Shown here piece after piece: positions 13,190 through 47,802 of a stretch of 61,560 nt of DNA. Where the stretch lies: assembly GCA_045634905.1 (NCBI GenBank), contig JAZRBC010000197.1, positions 1 through 61,560 of the forward strand, read 5' to 3'. The DNA comes from Akkermansia sp. GTDB taxonomy: Bacteria; Verrucomicrobiota; Verrucomicrobiia; Verrucomicrobiales; Akkermansiaceae. Within the stretch, counting starts at the first letter, position 1, and each line of letters starts with the position of its first letter. The notes under the pieces are model-generated. The model was not told where the DNA came from. It searched no databases and saw nothing but the letters and a program-made list of their open reading frames with translations. A program made the translations under genes and the position numbers.

Positions 13190-13222
13190 ACAGCGCTTCC
13201 GGGTAAGGAAGCGCTGTTTTTC
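13190..13222 (+). terminator. Intrinsic terminator after pyrD
   Basis: acagcgcttcc-gggtaa-ggaagcgctgt followed by T run. Confidence 0.8.
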
Positions 13223-13254
13223 CATTTTTTCATCATCCATGGCTCATTTGTTGT

Positions 13255-13283
13255 TTGCCAAAACCTGAGCTATGTGCTAGTAT
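13255..13283 (+). promoter_or_regulatory. Sigma70-type promoter
   Basis: TTGCCA-17-TAGTAT with extended TG. Confidence 0.55.
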
Positions 13284-13318
13284 GACGTCTGAGAATTAGC
13301 TTTCACCCCACACGAAAC

Positions 13319-14839
13319 ATGAAGAAAACACACCTCATCCTTTCGTTGCTCGCTCTGTCAGCCGCGTTTGCCCAGGCTGCAGAGTACACCATCACTCTGA
13401 CCTCTGCAGAACGCTTTACTGATTGCACGGTCATCTACAAGAGCAGCAGCACCACCAAGTTCCGGGGCAAAGACAAGGCTGGCAAGGTAGTCACCAGAGA
13501 AGTACCCACCAGCAACATCATTGTGATGCGTGAAGTGGTGAAGGAAGAAGAAGAACCGGCGGAAACCACAGAAGCGCCCGAGACTCCGGCAGCCCCGGAG
13601 ACGAGCACCGACCAGGCTCCCGCCAGTCCTGCAGCTGCCGAAGCCAAGCCCGGGGAGGAACAGGCCCCCATTGCCGATGGCAACGTAGCACAGCGTGAGG
13701 GTGAGGAAAAAGCCAAGGATGCCACCCTCCGCCTGCGTGAGAAAATGGCCAGTATCGACGCCATTCTCTCCAGAATCACCAAACCCAGCCGTTCCCTGCA
13801 AAGCCAGTGCAGCAACGTGAAGACCCGAGTCGGCCGGATGCTGCCCGATATGGACAAGAAAGCACTGGAGGTCATCAAACTTCAGGAAGAGTTCAACAAA
13901 GCCGGTGCCGCAGACTATTCCTTTGACAAGGTAAGCGTGGAGCAGCGCGACCAGTATGTGCGCGATGCCGAAGCTGCCTACAACGCCATGGTGATTGACA
14001 TGAAAGAAAAGAAGCGCCGCCGCAAGGTGGCGGGTCTCGACAAGTTCGAAATCATGCGCGAGCGCTACCAGGGAATTCCCCAGTACAAGGAAGCATACGA
14101 CAAGTACATCAAGACCCTCTATAAACTGCAGAAATCGTGGACCAAGAGTCTTGAACGAGAAGAAGCCACCCGCAAGCGTCTGGTGCCGGCTAAACGCACC
14201 GCCATGGAAAAGCTTGACGAACGCCAGTACAACGAACTGGCTGCACAGCTCAGAGAGGACGGCGATGATATTGCCACGGTCTGGTTCATTCCCCAGAACC
14301 GCAACCTGAAGATGCTCCGCATCAGCGTGAACAAGGTGAAGGATGCCATCCGCCGCAATGAGGATCGCCCCATTGACAAGCAGGCCGGAACAGTCCCCTC
14401 TCTGCTCACCCAGTTCTGGAACAACATGGACGAGGTTCGCATGAGCATGGTCAGCGGTGATCTCGAAGGCGCTGAAAAACTCCTTCAGCAGAACGCCGCC
14501 TACAATATCATCCGCGGTCTGAAACGTGAGCTGCTGCCCACCGAATATAAGCAGCCGCTGCTGGACCAGTATAAGGACACACAATCAGAAATCCGCAATC
14601 GCAAGCGCGCCAACGTCACACTGAAACTCGCACTGGAACGTGCCACGAAGAATCTGGACACTCTGACCTCCAACGCGGAAGCTCAGATTGACAGCGCTCT
14701 TGAAGCTGCTCAGCGGGAACTCGACACAGACGCAGGAGAAAACACCATGGAAGTGGAGCAGCCGGCGCAGGAACCTGCTGCACAGGAAGAGCAGCCCCAG
14801 GCAGCCACCGATGCGGCACCCGCTGCTGAGAACAAGTAA
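13319..14839 (+). CDS. Secreted coiled-coil hypothetical protein (506 aa)
   Basis: Signal peptide ending AQA, small beta domain, Pro/Ala/Glu linker, helical body. Confidence 0.85.
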   Translation: MKKTHLILSLLALSAAFAQAAEYTITLTSAERFTDCTVIYKSSSTTKFRGKDKAGKVVTREVPTSNIIVMREVVKEEEEPAETTEAPETPAAPETSTDQAPASPAAAEAKPGEEQAPIADGNVAQREGEEKAKDATLRLREKMASIDAILSRITKPSRSLQSQCSNVKTRVGRMLPDMDKKALEVIKLQEEFNKAGAADYSFDKVSVEQRDQYVRDAEAAYNAMVIDMKEKKRRRKVAGLDKFEIMRERYQGIPQYKEAYDKYIKTLYKLQKSWTKSLEREEATRKRLVPAKRTAMEKLDERQYNELAAQLREDGDDIATVWFIPQNRNLKMLRISVNKVKDAIRRNEDRPIDKQAGTVPSLLTQFWNNMDEVRMSMVSGDLEGAEKLLQQNAAYNIIRGLKRELLPTEYKQPLLDQYKDTQSEIRNRKRANVTLKLALERATKNLDTLTSNAEAQIDSALEAAQRELDTDAGENTMEVEQPAQEPAAQEEQPQAATDAAPAAENK

Positions 14840-24097: not shown

Positions 24098-24126
24098 TTG
24101 ACGCGCCCCGAAAAAAACGTTATACT
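24098..24126 (+). promoter_or_regulatory. Strong sigma70-type promoter driving a candidate sRNA
   Basis: TTGACG-17-TATACT preceded by A/T tracts (UP-like). Confidence 0.75.
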
Positions 24127-24130
24127 TCGC

Positions 24131-24234
24131 ACGTCTTCGGGGCCGGACGTAAAACAGGTTCCCGGGCTCGAAAGGGTCCGATTCATAGGGTAGTTGGGCA
24201 CCCAGGAGCTTCGGCTCCTGGGTGACTTCCTTTT
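24131..24234 (+). ncRNA. Candidate small non-coding RNA (~105 nt), family unrecognised
   Basis: Own promoter, hairpin cgggctc-GAAA-gggtccg, terminal cacccaggagc-TTCG-gctcctgggtg plus pyrimidine tail; no plus-strand ORF. Confidence 0.6.
24199..24234 (+). terminator. Intrinsic terminator with UUCG loop
   Basis: 11-bp perfect stem, C(UUCG)G loop, cttcctttt tail. Confidence 0.75.
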
Positions 24235-24315: not shown

Positions 24316-24343
24316 TTGCAATCTTGGGGAGCTATGATACAAT
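24316..24343 (+). promoter_or_regulatory. Promoter for amino-acid ABC operon
   Basis: TTGCAA-16-TACAAT with extended TG. Confidence 0.55.
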
Positions 24344-24379: not shown

Positions 24380-25912
24380 ATGAACAAATGCTTTCATATT
24401 GCAGCAACTCTGGTTGCTTTTCTCTACCTCGGCATGACATCCGCAGGCGCAGCGGACAATACGGATTCTTCCGTCCCTGCTGCGCAACCCAGTACCGGGA
24501 GCATTGCCTGTTTTGAAGATCTGCGCGGCCGCATACTTGCCGTTCCTTCCTCTACCGTGCAGGATATTTACGTAGAGGAGCACTACCCGGATATCAAGCT
24601 CGACCGCTTTGATACCGAGGCTGATATGATGCTTTCACTGCAGCAGGAGAAATGCGACGGTGCCATCATGGATGATGTCATCTGCTACGCTCTCGTGAGA
24701 AAGACCGAAGGCGTGACCATTCTGCCCGACAGCCCTGTTCCTCCCTGCCAAATGGGGGCCGTCTTCGGCAAACACAATGCCGAGCTCTGCGAACAGTTCA
24801 ACACTTTCATCAGGCAACTGAAAGCAAGCGGCGAACTCCAGCAGATTATGGAACGCTGGATCAAGAATTTCGACACGGCCGAAATGCCGGAGCTGAAGCT
24901 GCCCACACAGGGCACCCCCATCCGCGTGGCCATGGAACCCTGCACAGAACCCATCGTCTTCATCAAAAATGAAAAGATAGCCGGGTTCGATGCCGAGCTG
25001 ATTCACCGCTTCTCAGTATTCATCAACCGGCCGGTGGAAATCGTGGAGATGGAATATGACTCCCTGATTGCCTCCACCACCACCGGCAAGGCAGACATGG
25101 CGGCATCCGGTATTCTCATTACTGAAGAACGCGCGGAAAGCGTACTCTTCTCCGAACCGTACTACGACAGCCATTCCCGCGTGGCGGTATTGACCAAGAA
25201 TGCCCACCCCTCCATCATCTCTGACACCACCAGCTCCGAAGAACTCGGCTTCTTCGGCGGAATCAAGCGCAGTTTCTACCGGAATATCATAGAAGAACGG
25301 CGCTACATGCTTTTGTGGGACGGCCTCAAGGTCACGGTCTACATTTCCTTCTTCTCCGCCCTTCTGGGTACTGTACTCGGGGCATTCGTGTGCTACATGC
25401 GCATGAGCAAATCCCGGATTTGCAGCAATATCGCCAAGGCATATATTGACATCATGCGAGGCACCCCGGTACTGGTGTTCCTGATGATGATGTGCTACGT
25501 AGCCTTTACGCAGTTTGATAACACCCCGGTTGCCATCATCACCTTCGCCATGAACTTTGCGGCCTATGTCAGCGAGATGTTCCGCACCTCCATCAGCAGC
25601 GTTGACAAAGGACAGACGGAAGCCGGCATTGCTCTGGGCTTCTCCCCGGTAAGAACATTCTGCTACATTGTGCTGCCACAGGCAGTGCGCCGAGTGCTGC
25701 CGGTCTACAAGGGCGAACTGATATCCCTCATCAAGAATACATCCATTGTCGGTTATGTGGCGGTTGCAGACCTGACCCGCGCCTCCTACATCATCCGCGG
25801 ACGCACATTCGACCCGTTTTTCCCGCTGCTCATGGTGGCACTCATGTATTTCGTGATTGCCTGGTTGTTCGCCTATGTACTGGATCGCATCGGCCGGAAA
25901 ATCTGCAGATAA
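24380..25912 (+). CDS. Polar amino-acid ABC transporter, fused substrate-binding domain(s) + permease
   Basis: Signal peptide, family-3 SBP motifs (GFDAEL, ITEER..FSEPY), RGTPVLV, AAYVSEMFR, GQTEAG. Confidence 0.92.
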   Translation: MNKCFHIAATLVAFLYLGMTSAGAADNTDSSVPAAQPSTGSIACFEDLRGRILAVPSSTVQDIYVEEHYPDIKLDRFDTEADMMLSLQQEKCDGAIMDDVICYALVRKTEGVTILPDSPVPPCQMGAVFGKHNAELCEQFNTFIRQLKASGELQQIMERWIKNFDTAEMPELKLPTQGTPIRVAMEPCTEPIVFIKNEKIAGFDAELIHRFSVFINRPVEIVEMEYDSLIASTTTGKADMAASGILITEERAESVLFSEPYYDSHSRVAVLTKNAHPSIISDTTSSEELGFFGGIKRSFYRNIIEERRYMLLWDGLKVTVYISFFSALLGTVLGAFVCYMRMSKSRICSNIAKAYIDIMRGTPVLVFLMMMCYVAFTQFDNTPVAIITFAMNFAAYVSEMFRTSISSVDKGQTEAGIALGFSPVRTFCYIVLPQAVRRVLPVYKGELISLIKNTSIVGYVAVADLTRASYIIRGRTFDPFFPLLMVALMYFVIAWLFAYVLDRIGRKICR

Positions 25913-40798: not shown

Positions 40799-40892
40799 GA
40801 TACCCATCCTGCCCGCCGGGGCGGGGAACACCGCCAAGGTACCCCGCCCCCCCCGGCAGGAAAAAGCCCAACCCACCCTATGCCCTACCACC

Positions 40893-41495
40893 ATGAACGA
40901 AGCCTCCAGAGAATCGCATGCAGACGTGCCGGACGAGCAGCTCATTGAGCAGACGCTTGCCGGGCGAACCCGCGCATACGATGAACTCATCCGGCGCCAC
41001 AGCCGCAAGCTCAACGCCATGCTTATCCAGATGCTCAACAGTGAAGCAGATGCCTACGATGTAGCGCAGGAATCCTTCCTGAAAGCATTTCATTCCCTGC
41101 GTTATTTCAAGGGTAACAGCTCATTCTATACCTGGCTCTATTCCATCGCCCTGAACAACGCCCGCAACTTTCTTCGCAAACGCAAGCGCGAACGCAGTTT
41201 CAGCCTTGATAACGATGAGAACGGCAACCCGCTCGAAAAAGATGCCGAGCTGGCAGATGCCAATCTGGAGTCAGACCCCGTGCGCAAAGCACAGGTGAAA
41301 GACCTGCGCAGCAAGCTGGCTCGCGCCATTTCCCAGCTCTCCCCTGCCCACCAGGAAGTCGTGAATCTCTGCGATATCCAGGGCCTCTCCTACCCTCAGA
41401 TTGCCAAGCTCATCAACATCTCCGAAGGCACCCTGCGCTCCCGCCTTCACTACGCCCACCGCCAGCTTCAGGGGTTGCTGGCCGATGAGGTTTGA
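40893..41495 (+). CDS. ECF sigma-70 factor
   Basis: DVAQESFLKAF, FYTWLYSIALN, GLSYPQIA, GTLRSRLHYA. Confidence 0.93.
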   Translation: MNEASRESHADVPDEQLIEQTLAGRTRAYDELIRRHSRKLNAMLIQMLNSEADAYDVAQESFLKAFHSLRYFKGNSSFYTWLYSIALNNARNFLRKRKRERSFSLDNDENGNPLEKDAELADANLESDPVRKAQVKDLRSKLARAISQLSPAHQEVVNLCDIQGLSYPQIAKLINISEGTLRSRLHYAHRQLQGLLADEV

Positions 41496-45846: not shown

Positions 45847-46458
45847 ATGGACACCCCTAAAAACTACTACATACCCACCGTCATCGAGAAGACGAGCCAG
45901 GGCGAGCGCGCCTACGACATCTATTCCCGCCTCCTGCTCGACCGCGTCATCTTCATCGGCACCGAAATTGACGACACCGTGGCCAACTCCGTGATTGCCC
46001 AGCTGCTTTTCCTGCAGATGACTGACCCGAAAAAGGATATACATATCTACATCAATTCCCCCGGTGGTTCCGTAACGGCTGGTCTGGCTATCTACGACAC
46101 CATGCAGTTTGTCTCTTGCGATATCAATACCTACTGCATCGGTATCGCAGCCAGCATGGCCTCTGTACTACTGGCGGCCGGCACCAAAGGCAAGCGCTTC
46201 TGCCTGCCGAACTCCCACGTGATGATTCACCAGGTGCGCGGTGGTGCCCAGGGCACTGCAGCAGATGTGGAACGCACCATCAAGTTCATGTTCAGCCTGG
46301 ATAAGCGACTCACGGGCATCCTTTCCCAGCACACCGGCAAGGATTTCGACACCGTGAAGCAGGACCAGGACCGCGACAACTACATGACCGCCGAGGAATC
46401 CCTCGCCTACGGTCTGGTGGACCGCATCCTGGAGCACACGCCCGCACAGAAGAAGTAA
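45847..46458 (+). CDS. clpP: ATP-dependent Clp protease proteolytic subunit
   Basis: DIYSRLL, YINSPGG, AASM, MIHQ, DRDNYM; real part of the 538-aa ORF-track entry. Confidence 0.97.
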
Positions 46459-46473
46459 CCCGACCTGCCCTCA

Positions 46474-47802
46474 ATGGCCAAGAAAACCAAAATCTGTTCC
46501 ATCTGCGGCGGCGCCGAGAACGATGGGCGGCCTATGCTCTCGCTGGAAGGCACCCACATCTGCTACCAATGCGTGGAAGGCATGACCTACCACATGTTCC
46601 GCTCTGAAATGGGAGATGTGGCAGCGGACCGCATACTCGCCCTCATCAAGGGCACGCATCCGGAGCTGCTGCCGCAGGATAAGGCAGATGACTCCCCCGT
46701 ACTGGAGGTGCAGACCATCGACCAGGATGCCCTGCCCACCCCTGAGCAGATGCACAAGATGCTCGATGCCTACGTCATCGGCCAGGAGCGGGCCAAGCGC
46801 ACGCTCTGCGTAGCGGTGTACAACCACTACCTGCGCCTGCGCCAGCCCAAGACAGATGACGGCGTGGAAATCGAAAAGAGCAACATTCTCATGGCTGGTT
46901 CCACCGGCAGCGGCAAGACCCTGCTGGCCAAGACCCTGGCCCGGATTCTGGATGTTCCCTTCTGCATCGTGGATGCCACCACTCTGACGGAGGCCGGCTA
47001 CGTGGGCGAGGATGTGGAAAATATCGTACTGCGCCTGCTCCAGGCTGCCGATATGAATGTGGCCAAGGCCGAGCGCGGTATCATCTACGTGGACGAAATC
47101 GATAAGATTGGCCGCAAGACGCAGAATGTGAGCATCACCCGCGACGTATCGGGCGAAGGCGTGCAGCAGGCGCTGCTCAAGATTGTGGAAGGCACGGAAT
47201 GCAATATACCGCCCAAGGGGGGCCGCAAGCACCCGAATGAGCAGTATATCCGCGTGAACACGGAGAACATCCTCTTCATCTGCGGCGGTGCTTTCGTGGG
47301 GCTGGAAGGCATCATCCGCAAGCGCATCGGCTCCTCCGCCATGGGCTTTGCCGCGGTAGAGGAAGACCGAGACGCCAAGGAATACACCGAAGAGGAGATT
47401 CTCTCCAAGGCTATGCCGGAAGACTTCTTCATGTTCGGCATGATTCCCGAGCTCATGGGGCGTCTGCCTATCTTCACCCCGCTTACCACCCTCACGGAGG
47501 AGCAGCTCATGCACCTGCTTACCGAGCCGAAGAATGCTCTAGTGAAGCAGTATACCAAGCTCATGGCCATGAACAACGCCAGGCTGAAGGTAGAAGAAGC
47601 AGCCCTGCGCGCCATGGCAAAGCAGGCCATCGAGCGTGGCACGGGGGCACGCGCCCTGCGTGGTATCTTCGAGAACCTGATGCTGGATGTCATGTACAAG
47701 GTGCCCAGCGACAAGACCATTGATACCGTGACCATCACCGAGGATGTGGTGCTGGGCAAGGCCGAACCGAAAATCAAACGCCGCAAGGCAAGCAGTAAGT
47801 AA
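46474..47802 (+). CDS. clpX: Clp protease ATP-binding subunit
   Basis: C4 zinc domain, [37 protein letters not shown]. Confidence 0.97.

Follow-up and report, generated by a model that had tools for sequence, protein, structure and literature searches.

What is encoded by the short stretch that separates a C_GCAxxG_C_C gene from an amino-acid ABC gene in Akkermansia, and what would the start-codon-complementary tract that it carries recognise? The locus lies in a window of 61,560 nt, the whole stretch of DNA that was analysed, which is contig C197 of a 2.05 Mb genome that is 96% complete (G000). Akkermansia itself is a much-studied gut commensal. A first-pass annotation had described a stand-alone small RNA with a single-stranded tract, and had envisaged this as a trans-acting translational repressor suited to mRNAs lacking Shine-Dalgarno sequences. 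The anatomy proved largely sound, and the tract is predicted to pair with a few particular mRNA start regions rather than with leaders in general.

Judged by its sequence features, the region 24132-24234 constitutes a predicted non-coding RNA gene that stands alone, having its own promoter and terminator. The sigma70-type promoter, TTGACG-17-TATACT, was found where it had been reported, at 24098..24126 on the plus strand, with a consensus score of 10/12. It precedes a predicted small RNA of about 103 nt (24132..24234, plus strand), delimited by homology, tract conservation and the spacing of stem 1 from the -10 box. Within it, on the same strand, are a predicted H-type pseudoknot (24132..24162), a GAAA-capped hairpin (24163..24180), an invariant tract UUCAUAGGGUAGUUGG(G) at 24182..24198, which constitutes a predicted pairing seed with CAU (anti-AUG), and an intrinsic terminator (24199..24234) consisting of a UUCG hairpin of 11 pairs (24199-24224) and a U tract; both the GAAA-capped stem and the terminator had been correctly recognised. 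Of 113 tract-bearing stretches, a few of them chance matches, 103 have a loose promoter-like pattern upstream. Among 83 copies, 82 have stem 1 beginning 5-6 nt past the -10 box, such that the knot would sit at +1, and we infer transcription from about 24132.

The suggestion that this RNA is not simply the leader of the next gene was borne out. The downstream amino-acid ABC gene (24380-25912) has, as proposed, its own promoter-like site at 24316..24343 (plus strand), outside the RNA. Moreover, neighbouring genes differ from clade to clade and occur in both orientations, with the downstream gene convergent in 8 of the 48 loci scored by rough ORF calls, and the constant placement upstream of related genes that marks a riboswitch or cis-leader was not found. 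No conserved coding frame was detected, the minus-strand frame varying from 2 to 216 codons across homologues, with changing sequence, and the plus strand of the locus carrying only short TTG/GTG frames. Contigs assembled from public runs (X1-X4, X6, X7 and X9) read through the sRNA promoter and, since they come from relatives and span the promoter, they are uninformative on sRNA expression. A map of Akkermansia transcription starts forms part of PMC4782308.

The RNA folds with an energy of -46.9 kcal/mol (z -2.55), and 3 of 200 shuffled sequences folded as well. Bases in the 5' hairpin loop pair with a segment past an A-rich linker, yielding stem 1 (24132-24136/24145-24149), stem 2 (24139-24144/24157-24162) and an A-rich loop (24150-24156). 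For 26 diverse copies, pairing amounts to 90% in stem 1, with double changes at 4 of 5 pairs, and to 84% in stem 2, with double changes at all six, while the corresponding values are 79% and 6/7 for the GAAA hairpin and 83% and 10/11 for the terminator stem. Every stem therefore covaries across related genomes, the check that the first-pass annotation had recommended, and the count made on 25 closer copies agrees. The covariation score was 0.534, whereas shuffling gave 0.246 and slid partners did not exceed 0.243; such scores are inflated by the relatedness of the copies. Covariation of both crossing stems is the signature of an H-type pseudoknot, which is thus predicted to form the 5' end of the RNA, beginning at the predicted +1. 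The earlier described acgtc...gacgt hairpin is indeed present at its reported place, but it constitutes stem 1 of this covarying pseudoknot rather than a mere hairpin. The GAAA hairpin is dispensable in some copies and is missing, for example, from homologues L045, L103 and L164.

The claim that the tract is single-stranded was correct in part. Its UUCAU end is open, at a cost of 0.05 kcal/mol, but opening the whole tract requires 4.5 kcal/mol (median 4.4 kcal/mol over 83 copies) because the 3' part can pair with the 3' flank of the terminator.

Conservation of the tract in relatives, on which the original proposal depended, is extensive. The 16-nt tract TTYATAGGGTAGTTGG is present exactly in 117 of 154 Akkermansia genomes, compared with none of 154 for the reversed control, and it is the only long invariant part of the RNA, for which BLAST detected clear homologues throughout the genus. 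The layout was unusual at two inspected tract matches, in G169 and at the second match of G001. Some genomes carry tandem copies; L033, L093, L151, L162 and G024 (L624, L625) represent genomes with a pair of diverged copies, which are often arranged in tandem and of which one sometimes has a single C-to-T change in the tract. Genome G097 carries a decayed copy with an eroded tract (L598) while retaining both a sibling RNA, described below, and a perfect site at the ECF start. In a single clade (L032, L036, L046, L047, L049 and L050) a gene for a KhpA-type KH-domain protein follows 80-115 nt downstream of the RNA. Contigs bearing the titles Elusimicrobiaceae and Eubacteriales (L091 and L104) carry intact copies and are probably mis-binned Akkermansia DNA. 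Outside the genus, model R1 yielded one weak match in 77 genomes and model R2 four weak matches in 118, of which only L601 appeared plausible by eye. This locus (L601:1460-1630 in G178, E 0.008) shows a promoter-like site, a TTCAT...TAGGGTTGTTG tract and a terminator, and is a possible distant homologue.

Searches of catalogues gave no assignment to a known family. In the whole window no Rfam 15 family reached its gathering score, and matches at E<=10 were at chance level only; five further homologous or sibling loci gave no Rfam match, and ARAGORN found none. These results accord with the earlier statement that the RNA does not resemble tRNA, SRP, 6S or tmRNA. The SRP RNA of G000 is located elsewhere in the genome, and 6S RNA (RF00013) was not found in this 96% complete genome. 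A search of literature listings, covering few subscription papers, yielded no account of a conserved regulatory RNA in Akkermansia. The RNA family is real and apparently uncatalogued.

A sibling RNA was identified in seven genomes that lack the exact tract (G028, G153, G154, G157, G160, G162 and G172), with a GAAGGAGAGAG core, a tract of the form TTTCAT...AGGTAG...AGTTGG and a terminator, and it too gave no Rfam match. G097 carries both RNA types, G000 has a diverged sibling copy (L626, contig C4, about 13215-13365), and the other sibling loci are L413, L544, L545, L600, L603, L605, L616 and L620. In place of a sigma70 promoter, 8 of 9 sibling copies are preceded by (T)GAAC, 17-19 nt and GTC or ATC, which we take to be an ECF-like promoter, and transcription of the sibling RNA may be ECF-dependent. 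Eleven TGAAC-N17/18-(G/T)TC matches also occur upstream of starts in G000 (on contigs C17, C21, C28, C104, C211, C218 and others), several of them before genes for secreted proteins, and these could constitute an ECF regulon. The idea that the sibling tract is a diverged replacement in the clade without the exact tract was abandoned; the sibling family is also present in G000 and, therefore, no compensatory evolution is claimed. The seed itself is invariant and, with regard to compensatory change of seed and target, comparisons with sibling-type tracts were few and their outcome mixed.

The genomic setting corresponds to that originally envisaged. For 1,591 gene starts of G000, based on our own rough calls, strong pairing with the 16S tail occurred at 2.5%, as against 4.7% of upstream control windows. 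This Shine-Dalgarno poverty agrees with PMC10798248, which describes Verrucomicrobiales as lacking Shine-Dalgarno use, and with PMC10783764. Hfq, which a host of an Hfq-dependent sRNA should encode, was not found in G000 (96% complete). The tract had further been read as the complement of the typical C/A-rich leader plus AUG, and this did not survive. Its mean duplex energy over 1,575 rough gene starts was -10.5, compared with -10.7 +/- 0.8 for shuffled tracts, 25 of 40 of which paired as well, and a global anti-leader role was rejected. Two other possibilities were discarded. An rRNA mimic or binder is not indicated, no match to the tract or its complement with fewer than three mismatches being found in 16S rRNA (of G063), where the best duplex was -14.4, and avoidance of the complement in mRNA was not seen, the complement occurring 4 times where permutations average 5.4.

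Complementarity to start regions is real only at particular leaders, where it is conserved within clades. All three non-self matches to CCYRACTACCC in G000 fall in leaders, while 60 permuted motifs average 0.25 and none reaches three. Genus-wide, among the 30 matches listed, 10 of 19 non-self matches (11 self matches having been dropped) lie in leaders, as against 0 of 30 for the reversed motif; the ten represent three families, ECF sigma, BatA-domain protein and AAA ATPase, within which kin are not independent. Host leaders are C-rich, and twelve other gene families from the same loci gave no signal (z -1.1 to +0.9); polyprenyl synthase leaders score z -4.5 (9 leaders), and z-scores of target families are inflated since these were chosen on their hits. 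Net predicted pairing energies after opening costs range from -10 to -21 kcal/mol. Targets vary from clade to clade, none being found that spans the genus; in G063, three pattern searches yielded no site in common with G000. The leader of a ClpX-like gene in the window (46450-46476) also pairs with the tract, at -19.5 kcal/mol, and a BLAST-flagged gene on contig C56 (E 0.5) was taken as chance.

Likely targets in G000, judged by predicted pairing, are the genes of an ECF sigma factor, a 67-aa protein, an AAA ATPase and a GYF_2 membrane protein. The ECF sigma gene lies within the window (40893..41495, plus strand), with a predicted target site in its leader (40867..40882, plus strand) that ends in an out-of-frame upstream ATG (40880-40882). 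The leaders of 30 close orthologues pair with a mean of -20.9, compared with -11.9 for shuffled tracts, none of 300 being as good. In 20 distant tract-bearing genomes one of 300 shuffles was as good, and in 20 genomes without the exact tract 59 of 300 were; the difference between distant leaders with and without the tract falls short of significance (Mann-Whitney p 0.097), and clade is a confounder. Within 26 leaders the 8 nt ACCCTATG are 96-100% conserved, with conservation dropping to 38-96% in the spacer behind. Perfect 11-nt sites occur at differing spacings in G061, G010, G097, G015, G138, G012 and G170, and the leaders of G063, G007, G026 and G103 have no site. That G097 retains a perfect site despite having only a decayed sRNA copy counts against the pairing interpretation. 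Opposite CAU, 29 of 32 leaders present an out-of-frame ATG, which lies 13 nt (26 leaders) or 16 nt (3 leaders) upstream and keeps to one frame throughout. This ATG (window 40880-40948) opens a frame of 15-34 codons that overlaps the ECF sigma start.

The second candidate is an orphan 67-aa ORF on contig C132 (L454:1501-1830, minus strand), flanked by genes for a polyprenyl synthase and a RecQ-like protein; it was found in 29 genomes, all from a single clade. The ORF has a promoter-like site of its own, and its structured leader, some 130 nt long, gave no Rfam match. The protein is basic with a hydrophobic C-terminus and matched no family, including toxin families. CCYGACTACCC is present in the leader at 30 of 30 loci (29 genomes), varying only as C or U opposite G (0/200 shuffles), and a second site extends over the AUG (0/200 shuffles). 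Of the two, the distal site is predicted to occupy a hairpin loop, some 110 nt away from the start. Alternatively, a G-rich stretch of the same leader could pair with both sites within its own mRNA.

For the AAA ATPase (C147 in G000), a perfect 17-nt complement of about -30 kcal/mol occurs in five genomes, in 5 of the 21 leaders read (30 loci), and another 5 of the 21 have no site (above -9 kcal/mol). In L563, L566, L567, L570 and L571 an upstream GTG opens a three-codon frame, the stop of which overlaps the ATPase ATG, inside the perfect complement. The best duplex in G000 lies at the AUG of the GYF_2 membrane protein gene (C98), with 16 bp and -28.4. Of 70 orthologue leaders, only 2 keep this site in register, an exact 11-mer being present at a shifted position in four more and also in G102, G104, G123 and G128, and GYF_2 was rejected as a conserved target since the site is mostly lost among orthologues; the pattern reads as site turnover rather than a fixed target.

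The reading that we favour, and consider rather likely, is that of a conserved Akkermansia non-coding RNA with a predicted 5' pseudoknot, the tract of which would pair in trans with a few mRNA start regions, probably repressing their translation. Features expected of a trans-acting sRNA are present at the sequence level: an own promoter and terminator, lack of a conserved frame, a conserved accessible seed and conserved distant sites, the last being clade-wide only. Of the components of this reading, base pairing in trans by the tract appears highly probable, and repression as its main outcome is reasonably probable. The open UUCAU would provide a toehold on AUG or GUG, from which GGGUAGUUGGG could zip onto CCCRACUACCC-type sites located 2-29 nt upstream of the start. 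The resulting duplex would cover the ribosome landing zone of mRNAs without a Shine-Dalgarno sequence and, being long and G/C-rich (-19 to -30 kcal/mol), would form without need of Hfq, while the pseudoknot at +1 would shield the 5' end.

The same pairing could have an opposite or mixed outcome, either with a decoy upstream start being masked, such that translation of the main frame is raised or retuned, or with the 67-aa leader acting as an RNA sponge. The out-of-frame ATG facing CAU in 29 of 32 ECF leaders, at constant frame, the GTG of the three-codon frame facing it in five AAA ATPase leaders and, for the sponge, the remote location of the distal 67-aa site in its predicted loop are all in accord with this. 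We nevertheless consider it unlikely, given that the duplexes still fall within what is established as the ribosome footprint of the main start, that frame constancy is based on three length changes and that the GYF_2 and proximal 67-aa sites face the real AUG directly. A broader scheme, also speculative and unlikely, would have a two-member sRNA family wiring an ECF sigma circuit via start-codon choice, with the sigma70-driven RNA masking decoy AUG or GUG codons of the ECF sigma and AAA ATPase mRNAs, the ECF sigma factor transcribing the sibling RNA, and the 5' pseudoknot replacing Hfq as stabiliser. About equally doubtful is that a protein, rather than mRNA, is bound via the tract or pseudoknot, as sponge or scaffold, and that the leader matches are incidental C-rich motifs. 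With no target common to the whole genus, the fixity of all 16 nt is left without explanation by pairing, and protein binding would account for it more easily; in the G063/G007 group, a KhpA-type KH gene is found about 80 nt downstream of the RNA. However, a sponge should copy the mRNA motif and not complement it, the variation within sites is wobble-neutral, and the KH linkage is limited to one clade.

That the main job of the RNA is to silence the 67-aa protein, as an unlinked type I antitoxin-like RNA, seems to us improbable. The target would be an orphan small protein, basic and C-terminally hydrophobic, with distal and proximal sites in a long leader, a layout characteristic of tisB/IstR-type systems, but the two genes are on different contigs, the ORF occurs in 29 genomes as against 117 for the tract, and the protein matches no toxin family. 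Least credible, and already largely refuted, is the view that the element acts in cis on the next gene, as riboswitch or attenuator, or that it marks where a minus-strand gene for a small protein begins. A pseudoknot followed by a terminator is riboswitch-like and the minus strand does read as a leader plus ATG; nevertheless, the genes downstream bear no relation to one another from genome to genome and are convergent at 8 of 48 loci, the terminator is kept, the next gene possesses a promoter-like site of its own, and the minus-strand frame changes in sequence and ranges from 2 to 216 codons.

In a Shine-Dalgarno-poor host without detected Hfq, translational control by sRNAs becomes directly testable through a family whose seed is fixed, whose candidate targets are named and which yields predictions at the level of single bases. 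Decoy start codons and a 5' pseudoknot are suggested as design features.

Among known RNAs, SRP, 6S, tmRNA and tRNA are likewise small, structured and stand-alone, and no model of these matched; the Akkermansia RNA lacks the length and rod fold of 6S. Type I antitoxins such as IstR-1, acting on tisB, resemble it with regard to one candidate target, a small protein with a hydrophobic tail whose mRNA has a long leader containing a distal site, but here the genes are not adjacent, the pairing is short and the RNA ranges far beyond the protein, such that neither adjacency nor co-distribution was observed. RyhB and MicA are named as trans-acting base-pairing sRNAs in PMC4355289. They share with the Akkermansia RNA a length of about 100 nt, an own promoter and terminator, a conserved seed and several start-region targets, predicted in our case. 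It differs from them in occurring in a host without detected Hfq or Shine-Dalgarno use, in its internal, 3'-proximal seed and in its covarying 5' pseudoknot.

Chlamydia and Akkermansia both belong to the PVC superphylum, and the first-pass annotation had likened the RNA to chlamydial IhtA. This likeness extends to function, in a similar predicted aim at start codons, but fails for the structure by which IhtA is defined. According to PMC4355289, IhtA consists of three stem-loops, loop 1 of which carries a 7-nt seed, and repression by IhtA has been demonstrated. The Akkermansia RNA, unlike IhtA, carries a 16-nt linker seed after a pseudoknot and would form duplexes of 11-17 bp, some facing an upstream start codon; there was no sequence match between them in Rfam scans and they are not homologous. 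What they have in common, with the IhtA features taken from PMC4355289 and the Akkermansia pairing being predicted, is that both are trans-encoded, make G/C-rich contacts over the start codon and act on more than one target.
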